DNA of 24,000 nt from Promethearchaeota archaeon (GCA_030606485.1 JAUWGH010000002.1:385767-409766), one strand, 5' to 3'; counted from the stretch's first letter, positions 6,421 to 22,125 are shown. Made by a program: numbers and translations. The notes: generated from the sequence alone by a model not told the origin.

Positions 6421-6460
6421 ATATTTATACTGAAAAAATAATATTTATACTGAAAAAATA
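6421..6460. repeat. Perfect 2 x 20-bp tandem repeat atatttatactgaaaaaata upstream of the ParB-like gene
   Basis: 6421-6440 equals 6441-6460 exactly. Each unit contains a TTTATA TATA-like element. It ends 17 bp before ATG 6478. Confidence 0.7.
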
Positions 6461-6477
6461 GTAAAAGGGTGAAAATT

Positions 6478-7794
6478 ATGAAAATAAAATTTGAAAATTT
6501 AGTACCAAATAAATATAATCCACGCAAACTTTTTAGAGGAGCATCTATGGAAGAGCTTAAAGAATCTACTAAGGATTTCGGACTTATAGAGCCATTAGTA
6601 GTGAGACAGCTCAAGAACGGAAAATATGAAGTTGTTGCTGGAATGCGTAGATATCATGCTTTGAAGGAGCAAAAAATAGAAGAAGTAGAATGTAATGTTC
6701 TAGATTTAACCAACAAACAAGCTATTGACGTTGCTTTTATCGAAAATATCCAAAGACAAGATTTAACTGCAATAGAAGAAGCTAATATGTTTTTAAATCG
6801 TTTAAAAATAAATCCTGAATTTTTGAAGAAATTCAAAAAATCGGAAACCGTTTCCGATTTTTTCTCTAAAAACTTAATATCTGGAGATTCCAAATTTACT
6901 AAAGAACTTGGTGATACCTATCATATAAACCCAAAAACAATCTTTAATAAACTTAGTTTATTATGTCTCCCAGAGACATTACAGAATGCTATTGAAATTG
7001 ATGAATTACAATTAAGAATTGCTTATAATATAGCAAGATTGCGTCAAATAGAAGATAATGATCTTGCTCAGAAATCTATGCTTGAAATATATAATGACTA
7101 TAAAAAAGAGAGAGATTCGATAAGTTTAGATGAAATAAAAATGAGAGTATCCAAAAAAATTGAGTATTATAAATCCAAAAAAGATGAACAAGAAGAAATT
7201 ACTGAACAGAGAATTCAAGAACTAAAAAGGAAAATAAAAGAGACAAAAGAGAGCAAAGATGAAATATTGAAGAAATTAGCTAAGAAAATAATAGAAATTC
7301 ATAATAATGAAGCATTTACCGATATTGATTTCTCTGAAATGGAGATTATTGAATATGATGATGATAAAGAGTTATTTGAAAAAAATGATAGAGAAACCAT
7401 TTTTTCAAAAGGTGAGAAAGTTTCTGAATTTTTGGAGGAAGAAGATAAAAAATATAGGGGAAATGAAATATATGAACGAATAGTAGAAAATATTGATGAT
7501 TTAGAAAATAAAATCTCAGATATTCGATTACTAATAACTAGGGTTAAAGAAAAAAATATTACGCAATGTCCTTTCTGCTATGCAAGGATTGACCTACCTG
7601 AGATTAATAAAAAAACAGAGGAATACCAAGATGAATTAGAAGACTTAAAATCACAACGTTCTAAAATAGCAGGTATAAGTGGTTTTATTTCAGACAGACG
7701 GAAGGCAATAAATAAGATATACAGTGCTTTCGAATCTAAGGATAAATTTATAGAAGACTTTGAAAAAGAACTGGAGGACTTAAGAATTGACTAA
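6478..7794 (+). CDS. ParB N-terminal (ParB/Srx) domain protein with a long coiled-coil C-terminus
   Basis: GLIEPLVV..VAGMRRYHAL (GxRR box) and ENIQRQDLTAIEEA (ENxQR box). The E/K-rich coiled coil contains a lone CPFC. GGGTGA lies 6 nt upstream of ATG 6478; the track starts at GTG 6469. Confidence 0.8.
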   Translation: MKIKFENLVPNKYNPRKLFRGASMEELKESTKDFGLIEPLVVRQLKNGKYEVVAGMRRYHALKEQKIEEVECNVLDLTNKQAIDVAFIENIQRQDLTAIEEANMFLNRLKINPEFLKKFKKSETVSDFFSKNLISGDSKFTKELGDTYHINPKTIFNKLSLLCLPETLQNAIEIDELQLRIAYNIARLRQIEDNDLAQKSMLEIYNDYKKERDSISLDEIKMRVSKKIEYYKSKKDEQEEITEQRIQELKRKIKETKESKDEILKKLAKKIIEIHNNEAFTDIDFSEMEIIEYDDDKELFEKNDRETIFSKGEKVSEFLEEEDKKYRGNEIYERIVENIDDLENKISDIRLLITRVKEKNITQCPFCYARIDLPEINKKTEEYQDELEDLKSQRSKIAGISGFISDRRKAINKIYSAFESKDKFIEDFEKELEDLRID

Positions 7795-8575
7795 ACCTAC
7801 ATATAAAGAAGTTAAACCAGACGAAAAAGTTCCATTTGAAAAAGTAGAAGTTCATAGAATCTCAATTGATCCAGTCTTATCTCTTCTAGAATTATTAACT
7901 ATAATAAATGAAAGGGAAAAAGAAGGGGTAATAAAGTTATTAGATATCTCTTTTGAAAGCTCTCCCCAATCAGCAAAATATGGCTCCAGAATTGGGTTTG
8001 GTAAAGATGAAAGACTTATTGTAAGAAGGATGGAAGAGACAATGTATGTTCCTAAAAGAACATTTAAGTTTACAAAAGATTATACAATTGAGGACGCTAT
8101 TGAAGCTTTTGAAGATTTAGACCAATATCTTATAGAAACCAAACATGACTATACTTTAGACATATATCCCACTTCTCTTAATGTTTTGGATATGGGATCT
8201 AAACCAGAACGTGCACAAATGATTATAAGATTTGGGAAGAAAAGAAAAGTTGATAAAAATAGTGAAATAGGTTTAGAATTAAGTGGAGCTCAAATAATGC
8301 CACTTGATGCTATCAAACTTTTTATAGCCATAAGAGATAAAAGAACTAAAAATTGGAGAAAAGGATCAATCCCATCAAGAATTGCTGATAAAATGAAAAA
8401 ATATGTTGATGGAACCTATTTTATTGAAGCTGATGACATTAAAAACTACACAAGACATATTTATAAATCCGATTTTACAATTAAGACAACTTGTATAGTA
8501 GGTAAAGAGAGAAAAACTTTCGATAGATACACACCAATTCCTGGTGGCAAATGTAGAAAAGTCCCTAAAGATTAA
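7787..8575 (+). CDS. Hypothetical protein (262 aa), translationally coupled to the ParB-like gene
   Basis: TTG start overlaps the upstream stop by 8 nt; no family recognised. Confidence 0.55.
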   Translation: MTKPTYKEVKPDEKVPFEKVEVHRISIDPVLSLLELLTIINEREKEGVIKLLDISFESSPQSAKYGSRIGFGKDERLIVRRMEETMYVPKRTFKFTKDYTIEDAIEAFEDLDQYLIETKHDYTLDIYPTSLNVLDMGSKPERAQMIIRFGKKRKVDKNSEIGLELSGAQIMPLDAIKLFIAIRDKRTKNWRKGSIPSRIADKMKKYVDGTYFIEADDIKNYTRHIYKSDFTIKTTCIVGKERKTFDRYTPIPGGKCRKVPKD

Positions 8576-8709
8576 TTTTTTATTTTTTACTTTCAGTCTC
8601 CCCTCTCAGTGTCCTATAAATAGATTAGAGTGCGTGGACTTACTGATTTAACAAATATTTATATTATTGATCATCCTAATTATTTTTGTCGATAAATAAA
8701 TTAACAAAA

Positions 8710-8874
8710 ATGGAAAAACATAAGATGAAAACCGAAATTGATCTTCCTGATGAAGAATATAAAAAATTAAAAGAAATCTACAAAATATTTGATAAAGACA
8801 TTAATGAATCTATAGAACATTTAACAATAAATTTAATAAAAGATTCTTTTACTGAAATCAAGTCTCTGATATAG
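8710..8874 (+). CDS. Hypothetical small protein (54 aa from ATG 8710; track starts at TTG 8686)
   Basis: ORF track. A TATA-like aaatatttatatta lies upstream. Its 3' end overlaps the convergent RHH ORF by 17 nt. Confidence 0.35.
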   Translation: MEKHKMKTEIDLPDEEYKKLKEIYKIFDKDINESIEHLTINLIKDSFTEIKSLI

Positions 8875-9016
8875 ATTTCTTTATTTCTTCTAATCTTCTT
8901 CTTACAGACTCATTAATAAATTCATGATGTGTTCTATAACCCAATTCTATATGCTCTTTAATGATTTTTAGGATTTCTTCTATAACTTCTTCTGGAATTT
9001 TTACAATGTTCGAAAT
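8858..9016 (-). CDS. Ribbon-helix-helix (CopG/Arc-like) protein; start codon unresolved
   Basis: Minus-strand translation ISNIVKIPEEVIEEILKIIKEHIELGYRTHHEFINESVRRRLEEIKKSISET* fits an RHH beta-strand plus two helices. The frame is open up to 9097 (into the tRNA) but has no in-frame ATG, GTG or TTG. Confidence 0.55.
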   Translation of the reverse strand: MSNIVKIPEEVIEEILKIIKEHIELGYRTHHEFINESVRRRLEEIKKSISET

Positions 9017-9023
9017 AAATGGA

Positions 9024-9040
9024 CCCCCAAATGACCCCCT
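9024..9040. repeat. Element-internal arm motif CCCCCAAATGACCCCCT next to attR
   Basis: Direct copy of the 973-990 motif, 8 bp inside attR. In a circularised element the two copies would flank the core. Confidence 0.65.
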
Positions 9041-9045
9041 TTTAA

Positions 9046-9148
9046 TGGTGCGCCCGCCGGGATTCGAACCCGGGCCCCTAACGTGGCAGGCTTTTATCTA
9101 TTTCTTAAGTTAAGAAAATAAAGGATAATACCACTATACTACGAGCGC
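9046..9148 (-). tRNA. tRNA-Gly(GCC) with a 29-nt intron (9093-9121) in the 5' strand of the anticodon stem (position 28/29); CCA encoded
   Basis: Manual fold: acceptor GCGCUCG/CGGGCGC, D-arm GUAU-AGUGGUA-UUAU, T-arm CCGGG-UUCGAAU-CCCGG. After intron removal the anticodon arm is CUAGC-CUGCCAC-GUUAG with a 4-nt variable loop GGGC. The 3' half closely resembles remembered eukaryotic tRNA-Gly-GCC (GCCUGCCACG...GGCCCGGGUUCGAUUCCCGGC). Confidence 0.8.
9049..9062. repeat. attR core (inside the functional tRNA-Gly)
   Basis: Identical 14-mer covering the last T-loop nucleotide, the T-stem 3' strand, the acceptor 3' strand and the discriminator. Confidence 0.8.
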
Positions 9149-9179: not shown

Positions 9180-10199
9180 TTAAATATTAATTTTACTAAT
9201 CGTTTGTTCAACTTGATTCTTTTCTATAAATTCCTCGAGTGTTCTTACATTATTTGGTATTCCTTCTCTAACACCAGTATCACTACATTCTAAAGCAGAC
9301 ATAGCGGTTGCAATTTTACATAATTTCGGTAGTGAAAAATTCATAAATAGTGAAATAATTATTCCACTCATAAACGCATCTCCAGCTCCCGTCGTATCTT
9401 CAATGGGAGTGTTAAATATATTAGTTCGAATCATCTCATTTCCATCGAAAACAGTGGAACCATTAGCACCATCAGTTATTGAAATTAAATCAACACCCAT
9501 TTTATGAATATCCATTAAAATATCAATAGTTGATAACTTATTTGTAAATTCTGAAGCTTCCTCTTTATTGAAAGAAACCACATTGGATTTGCTAATTAAT
9601 TTTTTTGCCCATTGAGGATTATTTTTAATTATTGACATACTGGGTGCGGCAAAAACTTTTTTTCCAGCATTTTTAGTTAAATCAATTGCTTTATCTATAG
9701 CCTTACATCCACTTTCTGAAGTTAATGAAGTCCAAGCGAAGCCATCTATGTCTTTAAATATTTCTTCCTTCACATTTGTTGGAGTTATTAAATTGTTTGC
9801 GCCTTTGTACGCCAAGATACTTCGATCTCGTCCCCATTCGGTTTTTAGAATTAATGAAAAGGCAGTAGAATCCTCATCCGTTTGAATAACATTACTTACA
9901 TCAACATTTCTCTTTTTCAAATCATCAAGACATATGGAAGCTGAAAAGTCCTCACCTATAACTCCGATATATATACCCTTCATGCCGATCATTGATAAAT
10001 CAGCAGCAATATTTGTTGCAGAACCTCCAGGAACAAATTTGATATTTTCAACATTCAATTTGCGCGAATATTCAATGGCAGTATATTTTTTGATAACTTC
10101 TTTTTCAAATAATTCAAATCTTAAGATATCTTTTATTTGAATGATACAATCGAGTGTGCAACTGCCAATTGTTACAATTTTTAAATCAGATAAGTTAAT
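9180..10199 (-). CDS. PfkB-family carbohydrate kinase (ribokinase-like); 5' end extended beyond the track ORF
   Basis: Motifs GGSATNIA and TGAGDAF. The frame stays open upstream of the track's TTG (10056-10058) and encodes the canonical N-terminal strand LKIVTIGSCTLDCI. The only start candidate is ATT 10197-10199, 6 nt after GGTGA. Confidence 0.75.
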   Translation of the reverse strand: MNLSDLKIVTIGSCTLDCIIQIKDILRFELFEKEVIKKYTAIEYSRKLNVENIKFVPGGSATNIAADLSMIGMKGIYIGVIGEDFSASICLDDLKKRNVDVSNVIQTDEDSTAFSLILKTEWGRDRSILAYKGANNLITPTNVKEEIFKDIDGFAWTSLTSESGCKAIDKAIDLTKNAGKKVFAAPSMSIIKNNPQWAKKLISKSNVVSFNKEEASEFTNKLSTIDILMDIHKMGVDLISITDGANGSTVFDGNEMIRTNIFNTPIEDTTGAGDAFMSGIIISLFMNFSLPKLCKIATAMSALECSDTGVREGIPNNVRTLEEFIEKNQVEQTISKINI

Positions 10200-10350
10200 A
10201 TTTTCTCACCTATTTTTATTTGGAATAGTAAACAGTCATAAAAATCAGATTTAAGTTTAAAGCTAAATTTTTTAAATTTAAATTTTGTTAAAAAGGCAAA
10301 AAAAAAATATTTAGATTCTATTTCTGTACTGCACATCGGACAAAAAGTTT
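10185..10350. repeat. 166-bp direct repeat, copy 1
   Basis: About 5 mismatches and no net indel vs 11917-12082 (offset 1732 bp). It covers the PfkB 5' end, the intergenic region and a degenerate copy of the zinc-protein 3' end (stop TAA changed to TAT). Confidence 0.9.
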
Positions 10351-11916: not shown

Positions 11917-12082
11917 ATCAGATAAGTTAATGTTTTCTCACCTATTTTTATTTGGAATAGTAAATAGTCATAAAAATCAGATTTAAGTTTAAAGCTAAAT
12001 TTTTTAAATTTAAATTTTGTTAAAAAGGCAAAAAAAAATTATTTAGATTCTATTTCTGTACCGCACATCGGACAAATAGTTA
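11917..12082. repeat. 166-bp direct repeat, copy 2
   Basis: See 10185-10350. It contains the real stop and last 14 codons of the 12039-12428 gene and an orphan copy of the PfkB SD and first codons. Confidence 0.9.
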
Positions 12083-12428
12083 TTCCTTTTTTAATCTCTC
12101 CTCCGCAAAAACGACAATAGAGTATTTTTTCACTATATACTACGGGTGCTTTTGGGAGTTTTGTAGTTTGAGACACACTCTGAGCGCGTTTCCAATTAGG
12201 TGGATAACTAAGAATTCTCGTAGTCTTGATGGTTTTTTGATTACATCTATCACAACGTCCTCTTTTTAGATTTCTACTACAAGAATTGCAAATAACTCTC
12301 TCACAAGAGGGACATAAGCGAATTTCAACCCATGGATTTTTTTTTGCAATATCACGTCCACAAATATCACATGGCAGTGGGGTTTTCGGTTCTTTATTAA
12401 CCTTAAAAAATTTTTTTATGAAAGACAT
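12039..12428 (-). CDS. Multi-zinc-finger protein: N-terminal 8-Cys (4 x CxxC) module plus C-terminal CxxC-x10-CxxC zinc ribbon
   Basis: C20-x2-C-x15-C-x2-C-x4-C-x2-C-x8-C-x2-C62, then YCRFCGGEIKKGITICPMCG. ATG start lies 21 nt downstream of the ESCRT-III stop on the same strand. Confidence 0.7.
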   Translation of the reverse strand: MSFIKKFFKVNKEPKTPLPCDICGRDIAKKNPWVEIRLCPSCERVICNSCSRNLKRGRCDRCNQKTIKTTRILSYPPNWKRAQSVSQTTKLPKAPVVYSEKILYCRFCGGEIKKGITICPMCGTEIESK

Positions 12429-12449
12429 TTTAATATTTTTAATTACATT

Positions 12450-13097
12450 TTAGTCGTCAGATTCTTTCAATTCTTTAAGCTCATTTTCTAAATCTTTAAT
12501 TCTTTGATCCCCGCCCACTGTAGGGAGTTGTATTCCTGTTTCAACCGAAATTTCAGCATCAATTTCTCCTAATACATTCATAACATCTTCATTCGAAACA
12601 CTTGTGTCAACATTGATATTTTCAATTCCATCTGCAGTAATTTCCTCAGTAACTTGAAAATCTTCGATTCCTATATCAATGTCTTTGATTGTTTCGGTTA
12701 TTTCAGGAATAGATATCTGTGATTTTAATCCTGAAACGGAACCAGCTATTGCTTTCATAATTCCAGCAACATCTTTAATTGCGGAGGCTTGTTCTAACTT
12801 AAATTGCAATCCTTCAAGATTTAATTTAAAGGTTGAAATTCCTTTTGACCATTTTTTAAATTGTAAATAACCCCGGGCATGAACTTCAGCACCTTTCATA
12901 TCTCCTTCTTTTCGAAATTTAACAGCTTTAGTTCTTGCTTGTTTTGCTTTCGCTTCAAGTTTTTTTGCTTGTCTCTCTAAGCGTTTGTTAAAGATTTTAA
13001 GTTTAACGGTAACGGATCGAACATCTCGATCTTTTGATCTACCACCACTTAACCAACCACTTACGTCTTTTAGAAAACCCAAAATGATTCTACTCAA
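12450..13097 (-). CDS. ESCRT-III (Snf7/CHMP family) protein
   Basis: Basic helical N-terminal hairpin (LERQAKKLEAKAKQARTKAVKFRKEGDMKGAEVHARGYLQFKK), an acidic C-terminal half and a terminal amphipathic helix RIKDLENELKELKESDD (MIM-like). Divergent from Vps4. TTG start. Confidence 0.85.
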   Translation of the reverse strand: MSRIILGFLKDVSGWLSGGRSKDRDVRSVTVKLKIFNKRLERQAKKLEAKAKQARTKAVKFRKEGDMKGAEVHARGYLQFKKWSKGISTFKLNLEGLQFKLEQASAIKDVAGIMKAIAGSVSGLKSQISIPEITETIKDIDIGIEDFQVTEEITADGIENINVDTSVSNEDVMNVLGEIDAEISVETGIQLPTVGGDQRIKDLENELKELKESDD

Positions 13098-13152
13098 TTA
13101 TTTTAAAATTAATCTTCTTAAAATTACTTAAGAAATAAATATTTATTTTAAT

Positions 13153-13219
13153 ATATATCTTAAAAAATATTTAAGATATTTCAATCTATTTTTATTAGTA
13201 GATATATCTTAAAAAATAT
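13153..13219. promoter_or_regulatory. Two exact 18-bp direct repeats atatatcttaaaaaatat in the divergent ESCRT-III/Vps4 intergenic region
   Basis: 13153-13170 equals 13202-13219. Copy 1 extends into the inverted repeat atcttaa-N7-ttaagat. Confidence 0.45.
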
Positions 13220-13242
13220 ATTCTGTTGTGAGTAAAAATTAA

Positions 13243-14460
13243 ATGAGCTCTTTAGATTCTAAGTTGTTTTCTTTTGCAATGAAAGAAGCAAAAGAAGCAG
13301 TTGAGTATGATAAAAAGGCTGAATATCAAAAAGCCATTAATAAATATAGTAGAGCAGCTGAAATATTAATTCAATTTGCAAAATACAATAAAAATCCAAG
13401 TTTGCAAAAACTATGCCAAGAAAAAATTCACGAATATGTCTCCCGTGCTAAGACATTAAAAAGAAGTTTGAAACCTTATAAAAAAGGAAGGATTTCAACT
13501 CGTAAGAGAGTAACTAAAAAGGGAAAAGATTCAGAAGAAATCGAAGAAGAGGAGATTTTAACCAAAGAGCAACAAGAACTTAGAGAAGTTATTTCAGGAA
13601 CAATCATCACCGAATTACCTGATATTCGATGGGACGATATTGCAGGATTAGTGGAATGTAAACAATCTCTTAGAGAAGCAATAGTTTTGCCTATAATGAG
13701 ACCAGAATTATTTACCGGTGCTAGAAAGCCATGGTCTGGTATTCTTTTATATGGTCCTCCAGGTTGCGGAAAAACTCTCCTTGCTCAAGCGGCAGCAACA
13801 GAATGCGATGCAACTTTTTTTAGCGCATCAGCAGCTGAATTATTATCAAAATGGCTTGGGGAAAGTGAGAAATTAATTAGCTCATTATTTAAATTAGCAA
13901 GACTTGAAGCACCAAGCATCATATTTTTTGATGAAATTGATTCTATTACGACTTCGAGGGGATATGGATCGGAGAGTGGTGGAGAGAGAAGAATCAAAAC
14001 TCAATTATTAGGTGAAATTCAAGGTCTTAAATCAAGGACTGAAAAATTACTTTTAATTTTAGGTGCGACAAATCGACCTTGGGATATTGATACAGCAATG
14101 TTGCGAAGATTTGAGAAAAAAATTTATGTCCCTCTCCCAGACGAAGAAGCGAGAGAAGTGATTTTTAAAATACATACAGCTGGGGTAAATCTCTCACTTA
14201 CAGATAATGATTTTAGAGAACTTGGAGAAAAAACTGCGGGATATTCTGGATCTGATATTGCAAATGTTTGTAGAGAAGTGATTATGAGACCGATAAGAGA
14301 GTTAGATATGAGTGGAAAAATAACTGCCGAAGCAGAGGAAATTATCGTTAGAGATGTAAATATAGAAGATTTTAACAAAACACTTAAAAAAATAAAACCA
14401 ATTGTATCTGAAAAAGAAATAAAGAGATACCATGAGTGGTTTGAACAATTTGGTGAATGA
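13243..14460 (+). CDS. vps4: Vps4-type AAA+ ATPase (N-terminal MIT domain plus a single AAA cassette)
   Basis: MIT-like AKEAVEYDKKAEYQKAINKYSRAAEILIQ..IHEYVSRAKTLK, Walker A GPPGCGKT, Walker B IIFFDEIDS, and a Vps4-like C-terminal helix ..YHEWFEQFGE. Confidence 0.92.
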   Translation: MSSLDSKLFSFAMKEAKEAVEYDKKAEYQKAINKYSRAAEILIQFAKYNKNPSLQKLCQEKIHEYVSRAKTLKRSLKPYKKGRISTRKRVTKKGKDSEEIEEEEILTKEQQELREVISGTIITELPDIRWDDIAGLVECKQSLREAIVLPIMRPELFTGARKPWSGILLYGPPGCGKTLLAQAAATECDATFFSASAAELLSKWLGESEKLISSLFKLARLEAPSIIFFDEIDSITTSRGYGSESGGERRIKTQLLGEIQGLKSRTEKLLLILGATNRPWDIDTAMLRRFEKKIYVPLPDEEAREVIFKIHTAGVNLSLTDNDFRELGEKTAGYSGSDIANVCREVIMRPIRELDMSGKITAEAEEIIVRDVNIEDFNKTLKKIKPIVSEKEIKRYHEWFEQFGE

Positions 14461-14489
14461 TAAATAGTAATTAGGTGCATCCTTGAACG

Positions 14490-15371
14490 ATGGAAAGACA
14501 AAAAGCTAAAGAAGTCCCAAAAGAAGAAATTGCTGTATCAGATGAAAAAATTGAAGAACTAAGGAAAGAATTAGAAGATCTAAGAAAAAAAAAAGAAATA
14601 AAATTACAAGCAGAACAAAAAAAGGTAAAGGAAAAAGTAGAACCAACAATTTCCATCGATTTAGATGATATAGAAAAAAGATTAGATGCTATTGAAGAAT
14701 TTCTTGAAGAAAAATCTCAAGCAACCGAGGTTATAATTAAAGCAAAAGATTTGGATGAGATTGAGAAAGAACTTCAGTCTATCGAAAGCGAAATTGTAAT
14801 TGAACCAAAGGTTATAGAAAAGGAATTAACTTCTTATGAAATATTAATTAAAGAGCATACATGGCTTGAAGAAGCTAGATATGAATATATGTTTTCTGCT
14901 CCAGATACAAAGAAAAATGCTAAAGATTATCAATCTTGGTTAATTGAGTGGAGCCAAGTAATTTATGATTATGCCCGAATATCGATATTGCACGTTCTCT
15001 ATATTAGAAAATTAAATGCTGAGAAACCATTTTCTAAACTACGCAATAGAGATGGCGCAATCGCTGCAATAGCTCAAAAATTAGTGGATCAAAATATTGG
15101 AGTATGGTTAAATAAAAAAAAAAAAGAAACATTAAGAATTTATTGGAAAACTTTAGATGAGTGGGCAGAAGAAATACTTAATTGGGCACGGGAAAACGGT
15201 AAATTAGAACCAATTCTAACTTTTGAAATTCGCGAGTCTGGGGAACTTTTTGCAGATTTGCCCAAAAGGGATTTAACACGAATATTTAAAAGATTAGAAA
15301 AAGAAGGCAAAGGAGAAGTAATTAAATCTGAAGAAGGAGATATTACTTTTAAAATAAATTTGAATTATTAA
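14490..15371 (+). CDS. ESCRT-II Vps25-like protein with a ~120-aa N-terminal E/K-rich coiled-coil extension
   Basis: Residues ~125-293 align by eye to human VPS25: YQSWLIEWSQVIYDYAR vs QLAAWCSLVLSFCR; LVDQNIGVWLNKKKKETLRIYWKTLDEWAEEILNWARENG vs LRKKGNLEWLDKSKSSFLIMWRRPEEWGKLIYQWVSRSG. It starts 29 nt after vps4, with AGGTG upstream. Confidence 0.85.
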   Translation: MERQKAKEVPKEEIAVSDEKIEELRKELEDLRKKKEIKLQAEQKKVKEKVEPTISIDLDDIEKRLDAIEEFLEEKSQATEVIIKAKDLDEIEKELQSIESEIVIEPKVIEKELTSYEILIKEHTWLEEARYEYMFSAPDTKKNAKDYQSWLIEWSQVIYDYARISILHVLYIRKLNAEKPFSKLRNRDGAIAAIAQKLVDQNIGVWLNKKKKETLRIYWKTLDEWAEEILNWARENGKLEPILTFEIRESGELFADLPKRDLTRIFKRLEKEGKGEVIKSEEGDITFKINLNY

Positions 15372-15440
15372 ATTTTAATTGAAATTCTTTTTTATAAATG
15401 CTTATTTGATTTACCTTAATTTTCAGATTCAGAAAAAACT

Positions 15441-15995
15441 TTATTTATTTGCTTCTTTCATGATATAGTGAAAGATACAGCGTTTCTTACCTGTAGCCTG
15501 ACGCTCTTTTAGGATGAGCTTTATATCTGGGTTGTATCCTTCAAGGATACAATAGTCCACATATTTGCAATAGATTTTGGCATAATCACCTAAACCCCAA
15601 TCTTCAGCGCCATTATAAAAAGTGCAATTTTTCACTTTTATAATAAAATCACTGTCTTCTATGCTCGCTATTGGTTTAAAGTTTTTTATTGAATCTATGT
15701 CTGAATATATTAACCAGTTCTTGAATGTTAAGGGTTTCCCCTCTGCTCTTACCCTTTCAGCAATTCTTTTTCCCCTTTCCCTTCCAAAATATTCCACAGC
15801 CTCCTTAAGGAGCGCCTCGCCATCTTCAGGTCCTAGCTTCTCGATTATAAATTTGGCAACACTAGAAAACAACTGAGAGGCTAAACCAAATCCCGGTGTC
15901 TGATATTTATCTCCAATCTCTATTTTTTGGGGGAGAACATCATCTAAATATTCGAAATCAAAACCTTTTTCATTTTCTCTTTTTAAATCATCCAT
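15441..15995 (-). CDS. L-2-amino-thiazoline-4-carboxylic acid hydrolase-like (ATC_hydrolase family) protein
   Basis: The C-terminal pattern C.F...AEDWGLGD...IYCKYVDYCILEGYNPDIKL...ATGKKRCIFHY resembles the remembered PF14196 pattern. Confidence 0.55.
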   Translation of the reverse strand: MDDLKRENEKGFDFEYLDDVLPQKIEIGDKYQTPGFGLASQLFSSVAKFIIEKLGPEDGEALLKEAVEYFGRERGKRIAERVRAEGKPLTFKNWLIYSDIDSIKNFKPIASIEDSDFIIKVKNCTFYNGAEDWGLGDYAKIYCKYVDYCILEGYNPDIKLILKERQATGKKRCIFHYIMKEANK

Positions 15996-16107
15996 TTCTT
16001 TTCAACATTATATTAGAAAACTTTATATAATTAATTAATGCAAAAATAAGTTATTTTCTTCCATCTTCTCTGCGTTTCTCTAAATTAGGGGTATTTCCTT
16101 TATTGAA

Positions 16108-16851
16108 CTAAGAGATCGAAGGAAAATACCACTTCTTTCCTCTTAAGTATGACTCATCTTTTTTGGCAAAACCACTGGCTTCTAAAGAATTTAATGCCCT
16201 CAATGCTCTTTCTTGAGACCATGATAATTCTGAGCATGCATCTTCTAAAGAAATAAAACCCTTTTCTGAAGCTAATGAAATTACTTTTGCCTCATCATCG
16301 GTATGTTGAATGGAGAAAAATCTAACTTCAATAACTCCATCATCAAGCTCCCGAATATTAGGAATTACTTTCCTTTTCTTTAAAAGATACATAGCTTTAA
16401 TTACATCTTCAATCTCTAAATGATTCATGAGAATACCTGTATTCACAATTTCAAATACGTCAGAGATCGGCATAATACCTCCAGTTTCTTCTTTTTCCAT
16501 TAAAACTCTTTGGTATGCTAACATACCTAATTTTTCATGATCAATTTTTCTCTTTTTTCTTAAGACGTCTATTTCTTCAATTCTTTCAGTAATAATTCGC
16601 GAAGTAGGAATATCAAATTTCCTCTGTAGTTCTTTAATTTCATCTCTTAATTCAGGATCTAAAGCAAGAATTACTCCGTGTTTGATTGCAATTTCTCTTA
16701 TTTTGTCTTTGGCAAATTCTCTTGTTTTTGCTTCTTCTTCAAGTTCTTTTTGCTTTAACTCAATGCCCTTCCTCTTCATTGCTTCTTTTAGATCAATATC
16801 ATCCTCTATTTTGCGAATCCCCATATAGTTCTCCGACTTTTTTATATGCAC
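16108..16851 (-). CDS. ESCRT-II EAP30-domain protein (Vps22/Vps36-like)
   Basis: The C-terminal tandem winged helix aligns by eye to human SNF8: GGIMPISDVFEIV.. vs GGLITLEELHQQV..; SLASEKGFISLEDACSELSWSQERALRALNSLEASGFAKKD vs QLAEKNGYVTVSEIKASLKWETERARQVLEHLLKEGLAWLD; ends KWYFPSI vs HYWLPAL. An alternative start is Met10 (16824). Confidence 0.88.
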   Translation of the reverse strand: MHIKKSENYMGIRKIEDDIDLKEAMKRKGIELKQKELEEEAKTREFAKDKIREIAIKHGVILALDPELRDEIKELQRKFDIPTSRIITERIEEIDVLRKKRKIDHEKLGMLAYQRVLMEKEETGGIMPISDVFEIVNTGILMNHLEIEDVIKAMYLLKKRKVIPNIRELDDGVIEVRFFSIQHTDDEAKVISLASEKGFISLEDACSELSWSQERALRALNSLEASGFAKKDESYLRGKKWYFPSIS

Positions 16852-16929
16852 TTACTTTTATTTTTTAATATTATAATTATTAAATAATAACAAGATTATA
16901 TTTTTTTTTCGCTTTATTAATTTAAGATA

Positions 16930-17514
16930 ATGCCCAATTATGAAGAAATTTTTCGAAAAGCAAATGAAAATGAAAAAAGAATTGTTAAAGATTCTCTATA
17001 TCATATCTCAAACAAGATTTGGAAATATATTCTTGAAGAGGAATATGAAATTTATATTAAAATCTCAGAATCAAGGCAAAATAAAAACACTCTTGAATTG
17101 TTTCTAATTCCCCAACAATTAGAGTCAGAAATTAATAAAATCAAAAAACTCGCAGCAATAAAATTTTCGGGAATTCCATTGGGGTTTATTAAAAATAAGC
17201 GATTGTTTTTAAGTTTAGAAGCGGCTGAATTATTTTTCAATTTGCACAAAATAGATCCTAGGAATATTTTAATCCTTAATGAAAATGGTGAAAAATCTGT
17301 ACTATATGGAAATCCAATAAAAAAAGCCATGATTTTAAATATTTCGTCAGAAATTCGGACAAATAAGATGGTTTTTTTGATCAATAAAAGTCAAGAGTTT
17401 CTCGGCCTTGGATTATTAAAGGTTAATTACGAGAATTTTAGAAAATTAAATAATAAAGATAATGTTGCATTAAATTTGGTTGATAAGGGTTCTTATTTGA
17501 GAAGAGATCAATAA
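16930..17514 (+). CDS. Nip7-like pre-PUA/PUA domain protein
   Basis: GIPLGFIKNKRLFLSLEAAELF..ILNENGEKSVLYGNPI..EFLGLGLL..LVDKGSYLRRDQ matches the remembered Nip7/UPF0113 C-terminal pattern (D.GeYLR.e). Confidence 0.65.
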   Translation: MPNYEEIFRKANENEKRIVKDSLYHISNKIWKYILEEEYEIYIKISESRQNKNTLELFLIPQQLESEINKIKKLAAIKFSGIPLGFIKNKRLFLSLEAAELFFNLHKIDPRNILILNENGEKSVLYGNPIKKAMILNISSEIRTNKMVFLINKSQEFLGLGLLKVNYENFRKLNNKDNVALNLVDKGSYLRRDQ

Positions 17515-17555
17515 TTACAAGAAGATTTAGAAATTAGAATTAGTGTAGTAGGTGT

Positions 17556-17735
17556 ATGAAAATTTTAAGAGAAGAAGATATTGAAAGAATAAAAAGTGAG
17601 GTTGAGCTAGAATTTTAAAACGATTTCGCATTACAACAAATCCATATTGCCAGGAAAATTATTACTAAAGAAGCGGAGATGAAGGGATTAAGTTATCTTG
17701 ATTATATCAAGTTATTAACTAAAGATAAATCTTAA
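17556..17735 (+). pseudogene. Small conserved-looking ORF (59 codons) with an in-frame TAA at codon 21 (17616-17618)
   Basis: GGTG lies 3 nt before ATG 17556. It reads MKILREEDIERIKSEVELEF*NDFALQQIHIARKIITKEAEMKGLSYLDYIKLLTKDKS*, coherent on both sides of the stop. Not in the track because of the stop. Confidence 0.4.
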
Positions 17736-18676
17736 ATTCGTTCTAATAGACAGTAAAAAAATCCCTCAGAATCGTGTATGTGAGGATACAACTTTTGAGA
17801 ATATTTTGTATCAGGATGAAAAATATATTTTTCAAATTTTTCTAGACCAGGTACTCCAATTTGGTCTTTTATTTTTAAAATTCTTACTCCAACATATTGA
17901 TTTAAAACGTCATTTAAAACCATTTCATTTTCTTCAGGTGCAATTGAGCAAGTGCTATATACCAGATGGCCTCCCTTCTTAAGGGAATCCAAACCTGAAA
18001 TTAATAATTTAGATTGAATTTTACTTAACTTCTTAATGTCTTCTAATGTTCGACTTGTCTTTCTTTTAGGATCTCGGCGTATTAGACCTTCTCCAGTGCA
18101 TGGCGCATCCAATAAGATTTTATCCGCCTTGATATCCATTTTTGGTAAATCTATAGCGTCTTGATTAATAACAATAGAATTATAAACTCCTAATCGTGAT
18201 AGGTTAATTTTCAATGCAGGAATCCGATTAACATTTTTGTCTATTAAGATTAGTTTTCCTTTATTTTCCATCAATTGAGAAATTTGAGTAGATTTACTAC
18301 CCGGAGCAGCACACATATCAATAACTGTTTCTCCCGGTTTAGGGTCTAATACATGGCAAGGAACCATTGAAGAAAAACTTTGTAAATAGTAATAACCCTG
18401 CAAAAATTCATGCAGTGAGCCTAAATTCATTGGACTTTTAATTACTTTAAATCCATAGGGTATCCAAGAGAGAGGCTCCAAAACAAATCCTTTTTTTTGA
18501 AGCCTATTGAGTAAATCATCAATCTTTATTTTCAATGTATTAATTCTTATCGTTGGAATAAGAGGTATCTCATTAGCTTCAAGTAATTTTAAAGTTTCTT
18601 CTTTACCCAAAAATTTTATGTACCTTTCAATCATATAGGGTAAATAACCATATTTCTTTGCAATTGAAATAATCAT
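17732..18676 (-). CDS. NOL1/NOP2/Sun-family RNA cytosine-C5 methyltransferase
   Basis: SAM motif DMCAAPGSKS, catalytic DAPCTGEG..RRDP and YSTCS motifs. Confidence 0.88.
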   Translation of the reverse strand: MIISIAKKYGYLPYMIERYIKFLGKEETLKLLEANEIPLIPTIRINTLKIKIDDLLNRLQKKGFVLEPLSWIPYGFKVIKSPMNLGSLHEFLQGYYYLQSFSSMVPCHVLDPKPGETVIDMCAAPGSKSTQISQLMENKGKLILIDKNVNRIPALKINLSRLGVYNSIVINQDAIDLPKMDIKADKILLDAPCTGEGLIRRDPKRKTSRTLEDIKKLSKIQSKLLISGLDSLKKGGHLVYSTCSIAPEENEMVLNDVLNQYVGVRILKIKDQIGVPGLEKFEKYIFHPDTKYSQKLYPHIHDSEGFFYCLLERI

Positions 18677-18748
18677 GATCTAATCAAGTCTAAATCTTAT
18701 TAACAAATAAAAATAAGATGTGGGAAAGAAAAAATTTTATCTATTATT

Positions 18749-20053
18749 TTAACACTTATTCTTTTTGATTTTATTACGAGCACTCGGTAAATATTTTTTT
18801 ATCTTTTTAATCCAGCCTAAGGGGATTTTTGTATTTTCGAAAATCGTTTTATTATCTGCTTCTTCTAATTGATCGAAATAAAAATAGCCATTTTTAATAA
18901 ATTGAGCTAATCTCTTAGTACCAAGATACTTTATACAATCTTTATATTTCCTTAAACTTAGCGTATGAATCAATTTTTCCGCCTGAGCCGGGAAATGGGA
19001 AATATACCATTTAAGATTTTTATCAGTAATTTCAATATAATCTTTTCCCAGTTGTTCGTCAGTATAAATATTAAAACCCAATCGTGCCAAGTTTTCTCTA
19101 ATTGTGGGAATATTTACATTTAATTTTTTTCTCAATTGAGTTATATCATATTTTTTTTCAATTGATGAAAGCTCATTAATGAATTTAAATATAAATTTAG
19201 TTTCAGGAGAACTTTCGATATTATTTTGAAAAAATTGAATTTCATTCTTAGAGTTTAAATAATACTCCTCTAATTCCCGATATTCATCAAATTCACTTGC
19301 AATCATTTGAAGGATATTTTTGATTTGACTCCTTTTTAAAACTCTAGATTCTTCTAATTCTTCAAACTCACTATCGATATTTTGAATTAAGGTTTTTATT
19401 TTTTGTTGAATATCTTCAATTCCATTATTTATTTTTTCTATACAATCATAAAGTTCATTTTTTGAAATAGAGTAAAGCCCATCTTCTTCTATTTTTTTAT
19501 TTTGAAAAATAGATGAGAAATGTTTAGAGAAAAAATCTTTACCCAAAACCAGTTGAGATATATTTTCATTTTCATTCTTTTTTAATTCAATATCTAATCC
19601 AATTTCAGATGACTCATATTGTTTAATCCTTTGGTTAAATGTATCTATGTTATTTACACTAAAAGTCCCTAAGATTAAATTAAATTCACCTTGATTGAGA
19701 TCGATAATATGATGATCTTCAACTATAGGAAGATTATTACTCCTTTCGATTAGAATGTTATATATCTTTCTTAATAAAATCATAAGGGGTAAAGTTTTGA
19801 AGCCATCGATTTTGATCTCATCATTATAAACACCATCCCATAACTCTTTATTTAAACTGAAATCAAAATTTATTCCTTCTAATTTTTCTATATTTTTTTG
19901 AAGTTCAAGTGAAATATTTTGAAATTTTTTTAAGTTTTCTCCTAATTCTTGTATCTGTGCACCCAAATTATGATTTAATAAATCCTTATCTACAAGAAAT
20001 TTTTCTACTTCTTTAAATTCCATAAAAAAATAGTCTAAATATTCGGTTTCCAT
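18749..20053 (-). CDS. Hypothetical coiled-coil protein with a possible C-terminal HTH (434 aa from ATG; track starts at TTG 20062)
   Basis: Long ORF, N/K/E/I-rich with heptad-like segments. The C-terminal NIPTIRENLARLGF is HTH-like. No family recognised. Confidence 0.6.
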   Translation of the reverse strand: METEYLDYFFMEFKEVEKFLVDKDLLNHNLGAQIQELGENLKKFQNISLELQKNIEKLEGINFDFSLNKELWDGVYNDEIKIDGFKTLPLMILLRKIYNILIERSNNLPIVEDHHIIDLNQGEFNLILGTFSVNNIDTFNQRIKQYESSEIGLDIELKKNENENISQLVLGKDFFSKHFSSIFQNKKIEEDGLYSISKNELYDCIEKINNGIEDIQQKIKTLIQNIDSEFEELEESRVLKRSQIKNILQMIASEFDEYRELEEYYLNSKNEIQFFQNNIESSPETKFIFKFINELSSIEKKYDITQLRKKLNVNIPTIRENLARLGFNIYTDEQLGKDYIEITDKNLKWYISHFPAQAEKLIHTLSLRKYKDCIKYLGTKRLAQFIKNGYFYFDQLEEADNKTIFENTKIPLGWIKKIKKYLPSARNKIKKNKC

Positions 20054-20244
20054 AAAAATCAAATAAGTTTTTTCTATTATTTTTACATATTATTCACATT
20101 CAGAAATTTTTATTGATATATTACGTGAATATTTTACATTTGAACAAAATACAAATAGTAGTATTTTATTAGTTTTATTATTAGTTATGAACTTAACTCA
20201 ATACATAATAGTTTTTATCAAGATAGAATTTAGGCAATTTATCA

Positions 20245-20838
20245 ATGTTTGAAGTAGAAATAAAAGTATTGTTGGAAAATAAAGAAAAAATTAAAAAAAA
20301 GTTAATTTTAATGGGTGGAAAATATATTCATTCACTTGAACATGAAGATACTTATTTTAATATGCCTAAAAAACTTAGAAACTTTTATAGAACTGATGAG
20401 GCATTAAGAATAAGAAAATCTATTGAATTTAATGCAAATAAAATTGAAGAAAAAAGAATTTTTGAATTTTTAACATATAAGGGACCAAAAGTTGATGATT
20501 TAACAAAAACGAGGAAAGAAATAGATTTTAAAGTGGAAGATGGAGAAAAATTAAAGGAGATTTTAAAAATCTTAGGCTTTAGAGAAGTATATACTATAAA
20601 AAAAGAAAGAGAACTTTTCGAAATTGAATACTATTCAGAAAAATTTGAGATATTATTTGACTATTTACCTGTATTAAATCAAAATTTTATGGAAATCGAA
20701 TGCCAAACTGAAAAGAAAAATGAAATAGCTCTAAAGAGGGATAAAATTTTTAAATTTTTAAAAAAATTAGATATAAGTAAGGACAAATCAATTAGGAAAT
20801 CATATTTGGAACTAGTTCTTGAAAAATTATTTAAATAA
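20245..20838 (+). CDS. CYTH-domain protein (CyaB/ThTPase-like triphosphate tunnel metalloenzyme)
   Basis: N-terminal MFEVEIK carries the ExExK signature. Also ALRIRKS, TYKGPK, and LFDYLPVLNQNFMEIE near the C-terminus. Confidence 0.8.
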   Translation: MFEVEIKVLLENKEKIKKKLILMGGKYIHSLEHEDTYFNMPKKLRNFYRTDEALRIRKSIEFNANKIEEKRIFEFLTYKGPKVDDLTKTRKEIDFKVEDGEKLKEILKILGFREVYTIKKERELFEIEYYSEKFEILFDYLPVLNQNFMEIECQTEKKNEIALKRDKIFKFLKKLDISKDKSIRKSYLELVLEKLFK

Positions 20839-20878
20839 ATCAAACTATTTTTAATAAACTATATAGATGAGAATTACA

Positions 20879-21496
20879 TTATAATAGTTCTTCTTTTAGT
20901 TTTGAATTGAATAAATCTACTATTTTCTTTTTCTCAAGAGCCATTTCTTTAGATTTTTTTAAATACAATTGTTCATTTAACTTCAGAATCTTTTCTTGCA
21001 GATGTTTTAAAACTCCATTTACACCCGTTCCATGATTTACTTGATAGGCAATTGTACGATAAATTCCAATTGCCCCGATTGCATCTAATTTATCAGCATC
21101 ACTCAGAATTTTTGCTTCAATCGTCTGAGGTTCAATTTTATTTGAAAAAGAATGTGCTCTAATGCAATGTATGATTCTTGAAATAATAGGAGAATTTAAA
21201 TTTATATATTGTCGCAAATATTTTTCTGCAATTTGAGCTGAAATTTCAGCATGATTTACATCCTTTTTAAGGTTTAAAAACAAATTATTATCATAATTAA
21301 TCCCTTCCAATAAACGACCAATATCATGAAGCAAAGTAGAAATTTTTACAATAAATGAATTACAATTCTCTGATTTTGATAAAACTTCAGCGATTTTTAG
21401 GACTCGTATCACATGGGGAAATCCATGAGTATCATCATCGGAATAATACTTTTTTACAAAATCCAATGTTCTTTGAAAAATTTGAGGTTGATCCAT
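20879..21496 (-). CDS. HD-domain metal-dependent phosphohydrolase
   Basis: HGFPHVIRV...LLHDIGR...DADKLDAIGAIG motifs. Confidence 0.8.
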   Translation of the reverse strand: MDQPQIFQRTLDFVKKYYSDDDTHGFPHVIRVLKIAEVLSKSENCNSFIVKISTLLHDIGRLLEGINYDNNLFLNLKKDVNHAEISAQIAEKYLRQYINLNSPIISRIIHCIRAHSFSNKIEPQTIEAKILSDADKLDAIGAIGIYRTIAYQVNHGTGVNGVLKHLQEKILKLNEQLYLKKSKEMALEKKKIVDLFNSKLKEELL

Positions 21497-21611
21497 TTAT
21501 TAGATATACAAAATTTTAAGAATATAATCAATAATTTTAATAAATTAATTTAATTTATTATTCTCAAGTTAATTTCTCTTGTTATTAAATTATTAATAAG
21601 TTAAGAATAAT

Positions 21612-21854: not shown

Positions 21855-21870
21855 TTTTTTATTAATTCTT

Positions 21871-22047: not shown

Positions 22048-22125
22048 AAATGCATAAATTTAAATATTAGATTAATATAATTAATAATATTATCAGTATT
22101 ATAATTATTAAAAATAAATTCTAAT

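Follow-up and report, generated by a model that had tools for sequence, protein, structure and literature searches.

Four ESCRT genes lie between positions 12450 and 16824 of the window, the whole 24,000-nt stretch of DNA analysed here. They encode an ESCRT-III protein, the ATPase Vps4 and two ESCRT-II proteins, Vps25 and a Vps22/36-like EAP30 protein (Vps22 below; Table 1). All four exceed the Pfam gathering cut-offs in a search of the window ORFs, and each can be matched by sequence to solved ESCRT structures from Asgard archaea and human. They belong to a block in which PfkB and ESCRT-IIIB are read leftward, Vps4 and Vps25 rightward, Vps22 leftward, Nip7 rightward, NOP2/RsmB leftward and CYTH rightward. 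The archaeal genes that flank them include Nip7, RsmB/NOP2, HypC and an intron-containing tRNA. The first-pass annotation, made from the sequence alone, had named the same four proteins, and every family for which it proposed HMM searches (Snf7, MIT, Vps4_C, ESCRT-II/Vps25, and EAP30) was recovered. Its span for the locus, 12039-16851, does contain the ESCRT genes, but the part from 12039 to 12428 is a separate 129-aa gene and not ESCRT-III.

Table 1. Features of the ESCRT locus (positions counted from the first nucleotide of the window; ESCRT-III and Vps22 lengths are given from their most likely starts)
Feature	Position	Strand	Basis
129-aa 12-Cys protein	12039..12428	-	Alignment; sub-cut-off Pfam DZR
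ESCRT-III, B type (Vps2/24/46, CHMP1-3-like), 210 aa	12450..13082	-	Pfam Snf7 and PDB ranking
ESCRT-IIIB/Vps4 divergent intergenic region	13083..13242		Sequence
Vps4 (MIT-AAA ATPase), 405 aa	13243..14460	+	Pfam and yeast/human Vps4 matches
Vps25 (ESCRT-II), 293 aa	14490..15371	+	Pfam ESCRT-II and PDB matches
709-bp strain-variable insertion with ATC_hydrolase gene (15441-15995, -)	15400..16108		Strain comparison
Vps22/36-like EAP30 protein (ESCRT-II), 238 aa	16108..16824	-	Pfam EAP30 and human VPS36/SNF8

The ESCRT-III ORF (12450-13097, minus strand) matches Pfam Snf7 (PF03357) over residues 32-194 and scores 62.8 bits (cut-off 27.3). Its start is most likely TTG 13082, because orthologue N-termini read MGFLKD...; the alternative TTG 13097 would give 215 aa. 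The protein begins MGFLKDVSGWLSGG and ends DLENELKELKESDD, a MIM1-like helix whose L-x3-L-x2-L-K pattern is kept in orthologues. The best match in a PDB sequence search is human CHMP2A (E = 1.6e-7). CdvB (8.7e-6), Heimdall ESCRT-IIIB (1.9e-5) and CdvB2 (6.1e-5) also match, and CHMP1B, Vps24, and CHMP3 rank below Heimdall ESCRT-IIIB. An Asgard Vps20/32/60-like protein reaches only 0.1, and no Snf7, CHMP4 or CHMP6 match was found in this search at E<=1. The similarity ranking and the MIM1-like motif assign the protein to the B (Vps2/24/46) subfamily. It has 472 homologues at E<=1e-10; among those listed, the ones from other clades share 57-64% identity with it. Some JGI annotations name the orthologues 'division protein CdvB'.

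Vps4 contains MIT (residues 12-73; 51.2 bits), AAA (167-298; 136.2 bits), AAA_lid_3 (323-356; 42.3 bits), and Vps4_C (363-404; 36.9 bits) domains, the last matched at profile positions 20-61 only. It is colinear with yeast Vps4 (5uie), MIT included, over residues 16-356 (326 bits), and matches human VPS4B with 318 bits. The translation shows both Walker motifs, A (GPPGCGKT) and B (DEID), as well as the pore loop (KWLGESE), and an identical protein exists in NCBI (MCK4281814.1).

Vps25 consists of an acidic helical N-terminal extension of ~125 aa followed by a tandem winged-helix core. It scores 46.2 bits with Pfam ESCRT-II (PF05871; cut-off 27). Residues 141-283 align with human VPS25 (3cuq_C, E = 8.3e-6), as the first-pass annotation had proposed, and Odinarchaeota Vps25 (7pb9) gives 1.2e-22. 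A much closer match, at 1e-47, is PDB 9uyv_A, an 'ESCRT-II complex subunit'. A preprint (bioRxiv 10.1101/2025.11.01.685982) makes it probable that this entry is the crystal structure of MK-D1 VPS25, in which the N-terminal extension is present. The extension is conserved over its full length throughout Lokiarchaeia. The AF2 model of the window protein is poor (pLDDT 53), with helices predicted at 18-47, 58-76, and 85-102.

The Vps22 ORF (16108-16851, minus strand) covers positions 2-218 of the 219 in Pfam EAP30 (PF04157; 45.2 bits, cut-off 26.8). Its resemblance to human SNF8, also proposed earlier, extends over residues 25-233 (2zme_A, E = 1.3e-5), and residues 118-242 match human VPS36 (E = 9.5e-8). 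ATG 16824 is most likely the start, because the 238-aa form dominates the cluster and GGAG lies 7 nt upstream; GTG 16851 would give 247 aa.

The arrangement of these genes suggests how they are transcribed. Vps25 begins 29 bp past Vps4, and because of this short spacer the two genes almost certainly form one operon. ESCRT-IIIB would be transcribed divergently from a 160-bp control region common with Vps4, which presumably holds both promoters. Within this region an 18-bp sequence, ATATATCTTAAAAAATAT, is repeated perfectly and in direct orientation, at 13153-13170 and 13202-13219. These are its only two copies in the window, where 0.09 would be expected by chance. Blocks of the region are conserved within the genus and partly in two other loci (L007 and L052). 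The Vps22 gene converges on Vps25. The locus thus falls into three oppositely oriented units interrupted by an unrelated enzyme gene, much as first described. The enzyme is an ATC_hydrolase (Pfam, 84.5 bits). A 99.3%-identical strain (L005) lacks it and has 28 bp from the Vps25 stop to the Vps22 stop. Likewise, no ATC_hydrolase gene lies between Vps25 and Vps22 in any of 67 genome loci, even in those with a 92%-identical Vps25. The gene is a recent strain-variable passenger outside the ESCRT system.

The 129-aa gene shares the strand of ESCRT-IIIB and follows it downstream after 21 bp. All 12 cysteines of its product are invariant in the alignment. Eight of them form an N-terminal module, C-x2-C-x15-C-x2-C-x4-C-x2-C-x8-C-x2-C, which is followed by a YPPxW motif and, at the C-terminus, by a zinc ribbon; Pfam DZR scores 26.2 bits, under its cut-off of 27.3. 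The module was compared with C4C4 RING fingers such as that of CNOT4. The spacing of the eight cysteines is compatible with such a cross-brace two-zinc module, but no Pfam RING model matches residues 20-62 and no fold match is significant. With the AF2 model, which is of moderate confidence (pLDDT 67), almost all top Foldseek PDB matches are RING/U-box E3 domains (best E = 0.059, non-significant; TM 0.25-0.55). The best domain-length PDB sequence match is the RNF4 RING (E = 0.17, also non-significant). The protein may be weakly RING-like. Its close homologues form five clusters only, and it lies next to ESCRT-IIIB only in a few close lineages; full-length homologues of 115-159 aa also occur at greater distance, none of them in another ESCRT locus. 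It is a putatively zinc-binding, lineage-specific neighbour and at most a candidate for association with ESCRT.

Proteins identical to the window's own are found in NCBI 'Candidatus Lokiarchaeota archaeon' MAGs. For comparison, 67 related loci were fetched from species-representative Asgard MAGs, mostly labelled Promethearchaeota or Promethearchaeia. The order and orientation of the PfkB-to-CYTH block are kept in all 67, with a median gap of 30 bp between Vps4 and Vps25 and of 16 bp between the convergent Vps25 and Vps22. The identical proteins and the Asgard origin of all 67 loci identify the host genome as Lokiarchaeial, and GC is 21-33% across the window; the Lokiarchaeia-like genome and AT-rich composition described in the first-pass annotation are both borne out. 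The four proteins do match eukaryotic ESCRT families, as they would if eukaryotic DNA had contaminated the archaeal bin or been joined to it in a chimeric assembly. However, the same contiguous arrangement with archaeal flanks is present in independent ENA, Logan, JGI, and NCBI assemblies as well as in the 67 species-level MAGs. The human matches are weak (E = 1e-5 to 1e-8) against 1e-47 for the Asgard structure, and the genes lack introns, lie close together and have a GC content of ~30%, similar to that of the flanks. Recurrence of the block refutes contamination or chimerism, which we consider almost impossible.

It is also very improbable that the genes form a CdvABC-type cell-division locus, as in TACK archaea (Thermoproteota), and not a eukaryote-like ESCRT system. 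A MIT-AAA ATPase paired with Snf7-domain polymers is common to both, CdvB and CdvB2 are among the PDB matches of ESCRT-III, and the JGI labels mentioned above point the same way. Filament turnover by Vps4/CdvC is probably a shared mechanism as well. However, no CdvA-like protein was found among the window ORFs. ESCRT-III has only ~20 residues past the Snf7 domain, which lead into the MIM1-like helix; a winged helix like the one at the C-terminus of CdvB would have no space there. Furthermore, the locus has genuine Vps25 and EAP30 genes, and the window proteins are closer to the eukaryotic paralogues, the top ESCRT-III match being human CHMP2A. The Cdv identity is effectively refuted on these grounds. 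With a probability of roughly 94%, the window holds the core of a Lokiarchaeial eukaryote-like ESCRT system, and no observation speaks against this identification.

As to the rest of the pathway, Pfam searches of all ORFs of at least 59 aa found no ESCRT-I, ubiquitin or second Snf7 gene in the window. Neither tblastn with human ubiquitin nor the ESCRT-IIIB HMM on all six-frame segments found ubiquitin or a second ESCRT-III, respectively, in agreement with what was first noted. No ubiquitin or second Snf7 gene lies within ~10 kb of the block in 76 related loci, and the called genes of loci L001-L009 include no Pfam match to ESCRT-I (Vps28, Vps23/UEV, steadiness box). Thus, the complete pathway of ESCRT-I, ubiquitin and A-type ESCRT-III is not encoded at the locus; to judge from published work, these parts should lie at other sites of the genome (PMC9192718, PMC11791191). 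Could the module then be a ubiquitin-independent machine for division or abscission and vesicle scission, with ESCRT-II as a membrane- or DNA-associated nucleator instead of a sorter of ubiquitinated cargo? The absence of ubiquitin, E1/E2, UEV, and Vps28 genes within ~10 kb in the 76 loci is in line with this, as are the fixed position of the block beside the housekeeping genes PfkB, Nip7, and NOP2 and the location of Lokiarchaeota ubiquitin and ESCRT genes in two separate genomic regions (PMC9192718). However, gene distance is weak evidence on pathway coupling, and two-hybrid and biochemical work has shown that Asgard ESCRT-I binds ubiquitin and contacts Vps22 (PMC9192718). We regard such a machine as a tentative and rather unlikely alternative.

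For the ESCRT core itself, we infer complexes, assembly order and cellular role from homology and published work on orthologues, for which alone Vps22-Vps25, Vps25-ESCRT-III and MIT-MIM assembly and membrane remodelling are known (PMC9192718, PMC11791191, PMC11804906). A Vps22 dimer with Vps25 arms would dock on the membrane or on ESCRT-I/ubiquitin factors that act upstream and have their genes at other sites, and the C-terminal winged helix of Vps25 would recruit ESCRT-III. A two-hybrid interaction between Vps25 and ESCRT-IIIB is on record, as are Vps22 homodimers (PMC9192718). ESCRT-IIIB and an A-type paralogue encoded elsewhere would co-polymerise into membrane-deforming filaments; Loki CHMP1-3/CHMP4-7 filaments are reported to remodel membranes (PMC11791191). 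A Vps4 hexamer, its MIT domain bound to the C-terminal MIM1-like helix, would then unfold and extract ESCRT-III subunits, leading to remodelling and scission. Candidate roles are cell division, vesicle or protrusion scission, and ubiquitin-dependent sorting. The gene organisation fits the proposed order of action.

The system resembles eukaryotic ESCRT by sequence in VPS25, SNF8/VPS36, CHMP2A/CHMP1B/Vps24, and a Vps4 with MIT, AAA, and Vps4_C domains. The C-terminal ESCRT-III helix (DLENELKELK) is MIM1-like when compared with CHMP2A, DLEERLKNLRRD. While eukaryotic ESCRT-II has a Vps22 and Vps36 pair, the window has a single EAP30 protein with no GLUE/PH or NZF domain, and one ESCRT-III paralogue only. 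The helical extension sets its Vps25 apart from the eukaryotic protein. Its Vps4 is shorter than the eukaryotic one. Only the final two thirds of the Vps4_C profile are matched, which would fit a beta-domain insertion that is absent or reduced, as is also noted for MK-D1 (bioRxiv 10.1101/2025.11.01.685982).

The closest likeness is to the Lokiarchaeial/Asgard cluster described from 2015 onward (e.g., in Lokiarchaeum GC14_75 and Ca. Prometheoarchaeum syntrophicum MK-D1; PMC9192718, PMC10936438). It has the same four families, a Vps25 with an N-terminal extension and co-directed with Vps4, an ESCRT-III of Vps2/24/46 type, and ESCRT-I/ubiquitin and A-type ESCRT-III at other sites. Tight co-location of Vps25, ESCRT-III, and Vps4 in Asgard genomes (PMC9192718), N-terminal subdomains of Asgard Vps25 and the ESCRT-III families Vps24 and Vps20 (PMC10936438) are all on record. 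According to Makarova et al., Vps25 typically has the same direction as Vps4 and ESCRT-III, and Vps22 that of Vps23/28. In this class, however, Vps4 and ESCRT-IIIB diverge from each other, and a solitary Vps22 faces Nip7. The window departs from the known cluster only peripherally, in the ATC_hydrolase insertion, the clade-specific 12-Cys gene and the TTG start of ESCRT-IIIB. These indel and neighbour-gene observations, together with the revised starts (TTG 13082 and ATG 16824), are new but minor. Beyond what was first noted, the arrangement is the invariant, published Lokiarchaeial one, and its interruption varies between strains. The cluster has been known since the first Lokiarchaeum genome, was later analysed in depth, and is ordinary for its lineage.

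Four genes within 12039-16851 encode ESCRT-III, Vps4, Vps25 and Vps22/36-like proteins, as claimed by the first-pass annotation, which had described a eukaryote-like ESCRT locus. The gene set comes from an ORF listing and Pfam scans (see the table), and 4/4 of the ESCRT assignments exceed the curated Pfam thresholds. The ESCRT finding is therefore real, correctly read, and no chance resemblance. The genes of the locus stand, but 12039, taken as its start, belongs to a separate 129-aa gene on the minus strand.

Features of the window and their coordinates
Feature	Position	Strand	Support or remark
Amidase gene	1-849	-	
Integrated mobile element, ~8.1 kb	944-9062 (element ~958-9048)		between the amidase and tRNA genes
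Perfect 14-bp direct repeat TGCGCCCGCCGGGA	944-957 and 9049-9062		bounds the element; second copy in tRNA 3' end
Sub-terminal 23-bp repeats of the element	968-990 and 9018-9040		
Tandem paralogous genes of the element	2761-3420 and 3737-4405	-	219 and 222 aa; 80% DNA identity over 300 nt
Tyrosine integrase of the element	4807-5536	+	in-frame TAA at 5200-5202
ParB-like gene of the element	6469-7794		
tRNA gene, 100 nt	9049-9148	-	Rfam 42.1 bits; missed by ARAGORN
165-bp direct repeat, 97% identical	10185-10349 and 11917-12081		flanks a 1.73-kb segment
129-aa zinc-ribbon protein	12039-12428	-	Pfam DZR 26.2 bits, slightly below cut-off
Snf7-domain protein (ESCRT-IIIB)	12450-13097 (as ORF)	-	Pfam 62.8 bits
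Perfect 18-bp direct repeat ATATATCTTAAAAAATAT	13153-13170 and 13202-13219		49 bp apart
MIT + AAA + AAA_lid_3 + Vps4_C ATPase (Vps4), 405 aa	13243-14460	+	Pfam
Vps25, 293 aa	14490-15371	+	ESCRT-II/Vps25 Pfam 46.2 bits on residues 142-247
ATC_hydrolase	15441-15995	-	Pfam 84.5 bits
EAP30 protein (Vps22)	16108-16851 (as ORF)	-	Pfam 45.2 bits, almost entire profile
59-aa ORF, 3' of Nip7	17556-17735	+	in-frame stop at codon 21, CCA to TAA
434-aa protein	18749-20053	-	between NOP2/RsmB and CYTH
549-aa protein	22126-23775	+	SBBP beta-propeller + bacterial TSP3 calcium-binding repeats

Two of these ORFs are probably longer than their genes. On near-identical contigs the ESCRT-III is called with a length of 210 aa and the EAP30 protein with 238 aa. 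ESCRT-III orthologues share the N-terminus MGFLKD(L/M)S.WLSGG, with ATG where the window has TTG 13082, and GGAG at -7 precedes ATG 16824 of the EAP30 gene. On these grounds the genes are placed at 12450-13082 and 16108-16824. Where ESCRT-IIIB has its conserved N-terminal Met, TTG is common to the window and its close relatives L010-L012. Several other lineages (L019, L048, L049 and L066) have an Ile codon (…IGFLKD…) at this position, without a nearby ATG, which points to initiation at non-canonical codons or to 5' ends of an unusual kind in the ESCRT-IIIB gene.

Sequence searches of the PDB provide independent confirmation. Vps25 matches 9uyv_A, an 'ESCRT-II complex subunit' (E 1e-47), the tandem winged-helix structure of Odinarchaeota Vps25, 7pb9 (E 1.2e-22), and, with residues 141-283, human VPS25 (E 8.3e-6). 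The EAP30 protein matches human VPS36 (E 9.5e-8) and, with residues 25-233, human SNF8 (E 1.3e-5). This confirms the statement that two proteins of the locus are alignable with human VPS25 and SNF8. Since the AF2 model of full-length Vps25 (pLDDT 53 from a 21-sequence alignment) is unusable for fold search, sequence matches to solved Vps25 structures were relied on instead. The top PDB match of the ESCRT-III is human CHMP2A (1.6e-7), followed by CdvB, Heimdallarchaeota ESCRT-IIIB (1.9e-5), CHMP1B, Vps24 and CHMP3. In the same search an Asgard 'Vps20/32/60-like' protein is matched at E 0.1 only, and Snf7, CHMP4 and CHMP6 entries give no match at E<=1. The C-terminus, …DQRIKDLENELKELKESDD, is an amphipathic L-x3-L-x2-L-K helix kept in all orthologues, and it resembles the MIM1 of CHMP2A, DLEERLKNLRRD. 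Because of this MIM1-like C-terminus and the order of the PDB matches, the protein is assigned to the B class (Vps2/24/46, CHMP1-3), an assignment by similarity ranking and not by a tree. Vps4 is colinear, including the MIT domain, with yeast Vps4 (326 bits, residues 16-356) and human VPS4B (318 bits). It matches only positions 20-61 of the Vps4_C profile, and yeast Vps4 is ~30 residues longer. The short length and partial match fit the lack of an insertion that was described for the Vps4 of MK-D1 (bioRxiv 10.1101/2025.11.01.685982).

Assemblies from NCBI, ENA and Logan, with contigs of up to 489,666 bp, encode proteins identical to the Vps4, Vps25, zinc-ribbon protein, ATC_hydrolase and Nip7 of the window. 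The Logan contig L003, from one of the nearest strains, is 100% identical to window 12009-24000. The window Vps4 is MCK4281814.1, 'AAA family ATPase [Candidatus Lokiarchaeota archaeon]', and the homologues of Vps25 and ESCRT-IIIB are from MAGs labelled as Asgard, mainly Promethearchaeota/Lokiarchaeota. These records bear out the proposed placement in a Lokiarchaeia-like genome (the class is named Promethearchaeia in current NCBI taxonomy).

For the synteny sample, the Vps25 alignment was scanned against one genome per GTDB species, which gave 67 loci, and neighbours were mapped by tblastn with the window proteins. All 67 loci come from Asgard MAGs, mostly labelled Promethearchaeota or Promethearchaeia. 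The order and orientation PfkB(-), ESCRT-IIIB(-), Vps4(+), Vps25(+), Vps22(-), Nip7(+), RsmB/NOP2(-), CYTH(+) holds in 67/67; the full eight-gene block is found in 32 of them, and all other patterns are the block cut by a contig end. The gaps have medians of 30 bp from Vps4 to Vps25, 16 bp between the convergent Vps25/Vps22 ends, 222 bp between the divergent ESCRT-IIIB/Vps4 starts and 98 bp between the divergent Vps22/Nip7 starts. Compared with the window proteins, the median identities are 58% for ESCRT-IIIB, 63% for Vps4, 47% for Vps25 and 60% for Vps22. The split into three transcription units is indeed seen, but since order and orientation are invariant it is a fixed class-wide design and not a peculiarity of the window. 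The block is a handy synteny anchor for binning and for detecting lineage-specific insertions. One locus, L073 (BLK3-3.bin.73, Promethearchaeia), has two tandem ESCRT-IIIB paralogues upstream of Vps4 (5938-6570 and 7379-8011 of that locus; 50% and 42% identity to the window protein), the sole duplication among the 67.

Since 67 archaeal genomes have the block, eukaryotic contamination is ruled out as a source of the locus. A Cdv system is likewise ruled out, as there is neither a CdvA nor a CdvB-type winged helix. The window has no ESCRT-I, second ESCRT-III or ubiquitin gene, as the first-pass annotation had noted: Pfam scans of the remaining window ORFs of at least 59 aa did not find Vps28, UEV, Vps23, steadiness box, ubiquitin, E1/E2 or a second Snf7. 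Human ubiquitin gave no tblastn match in 76 related loci, and with an HMM of ESCRT-IIIB orthologues no paralogue was detected in the E range 1e-30 to 0.36, either in the window or in these loci. This agrees with the literature. Lokiarchaeum GC14_75 has two ESCRT-III proteins under distant accessions, KKK42122.1 and KKK44605.1 (PMC11791191), and its ubiquitin and ESCRT genes lie in separate regions (PMC9192718). Reading the 59-aa ORF as the free-standing steadiness-box protein of Loki is unsupported: it has no Pfam match, occurs in close relatives only (intact in L001, L002 and L012), and is interrupted by a stop codon in the window.

The unrelated enzyme gene said to interrupt the locus is an ATC_hydrolase gene, and it is strain-variable. 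It is confined to the window and its nearest strains, L001-L004. The gene is absent from L010-L012, species whose Vps25 is 88-92% identical, and from L005, a strain of 99.3% DNA identity in which 28 bp separate the Vps25 and Vps22 stops. The passenger gene thus lies in a 709-bp presence/absence polymorphism, window ~15400-16108. The insertion says nothing on ESCRT function; it is a clean single-gene case, placed exactly in a convergent spacer that is normally ~16 bp.

Another neighbour, the 129-aa gene, follows ESCRT-IIIB on the same strand after 21 bp. Its product has 12/12 invariant Cys, arranged as C-x2-C-x15-C-x2-C-x4-C-x2-C-x8-C-x2-C followed by a YPPxW motif and a C-terminal zinc ribbon. 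The family has only five close clusters, and the gene adjoins ESCRT-IIIB only in the window's clade, L012 (86% identity) and the locus L007 (53%). An exhaustive HMMER profile search, whose matches are mostly generic zinc-ribbon repeats, found six distant full-length homologues (115-159 aa) and one tandem-duplicated form. None of these maps to another ESCRT locus, so that a functional link to ESCRT that is conserved finds no support. The AF2 model is moderate (pLDDT 67, core ~80). Its leading PDB matches in Foldseek are nearly all RING/U-box E3 domains, none of them significant (best E 0.059). The RNF4 RING matches the family profile at E 0.17 among PDB sequences, and among Pfam RING models none fits the eight-Cys module. 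A RING-like, ubiquitin-related role is therefore a low-probability lead only. The fuller proposal, that in a few close lineages ESCRT-IIIB gained a co-transcribed partner whose N-terminal eight-Cys module would be a C4C4 RING-like finger, serving as a ubiquitin ligase or ubiquitin-system adaptor directly on or with ESCRT-III, is very improbable. If true, it would put a ubiquitin link in an ESCRT-III/Vps4 operon region otherwise without one.

By homology and from work on orthologues (PMC9192718), Vps22 would dimerise and carry Vps25. Vps25 would contact ESCRT-IIIB, and a two-hybrid interaction between them is reported (PMC9192718). B- and A-type subunits would form composite membrane-deforming filaments, as for orthologues (PMC11804906, PMC11791191), and the Vps4 MIT domain would grip the MIM1-like ESCRT-III tail, so that the polymer is disassembled. 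Candidate cellular roles are division, vesicle or protrusion scission, and ubiquitin-dependent sorting. Tight spacing supports co-expression of Vps4 and Vps25. In alignment, the N-terminal extension of Vps25 is conserved class-wide in its full length, with the motifs LRKEL, IExRLDxIExFL and IEKELQxIExEI. It is described as 'additional N-terminal subdomains' in Asgard Vps25 (PMC10936438) and as an 'unstructured N-terminal extension' in MK-D1 (bioRxiv 10.1101/2025.11.01.685982). The 18-bp repeat lies in the 160-bp ESCRT-IIIB/Vps4 divergent region, its second copy 24-41 nt upstream of the Vps4 ATG. It occurs nowhere else in the window, and 0.09 matches are expected by chance. The region also has blocks conserved in related species, and these and the repeat may be promoter or regulator sites.

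Other parts of the window vary as well. The mobile element, with the tRNA gene as its attachment site, is missing from the near-identical L001 and L004, where 238 bp separate amidase and PfkB. Its cargo is the ParB-like gene, whose product has no relatives in a viral-contig scan of IMG/VR, and many ORFs without family matches; the tandem paralogues have no Pfam or PHROG match. Past the TAA, the integrase frame still encodes the catalytic HxLRR...H...Y region, and the gene is probably a pseudogene in a decaying element. The tRNA gene probably contains an archaeal intron. The 1.73-kb segment between the 165-bp repeats carries a truncated VTT-domain ORF, a 103-aa winged-helix-like protein and a nitroreductase. 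The second repeat copy overlaps the final 14 codons of the 129-aa gene, and the repeat is the break point of several short assemblies. L007 has no such segment, and PfkB adjoins the 129-aa gene there. The 434-aa protein looks coiled-coil-rich by eye. Neither Pfam nor PHROG gives it a match, and it can be detected in close relatives of the window and in L007 (54% identity) but nowhere else. Other Lokiarchaeia have a variable Nip7-NOP2 gap with genes of ~434 aa and ~320 aa, or of 650-1030 aa, and the window protein is unrelated to all of these. The ~434-aa genes of this gap also lack Pfam/PHROG matches, and their orthology to the window gene is rejected (phmmer, no match at E<=10). A further strain-variable insertion is the gene for the secreted or membrane-anchored 549-aa protein, which L003 has and the near-identical L001 and L002 lack.

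The ESCRT locus of the window is the already known Asgard cluster. This cluster was first reported with the Lokiarchaeum genome (summarised in PMC4571567) and later work has analysed its genomics, biochemistry and structure (PMC9192718, PMC10936438, PMC11791191, PMC11804906, bioRxiv 10.1101/2025.11.01.685982). Asgard ESCRT-II/III/Vps4 clusters are central evidence that membrane-remodelling machinery was already present in the archaeal ancestor of eukaryotes. The window locus is a further copy of the published arrangement and leaves that picture unchanged.
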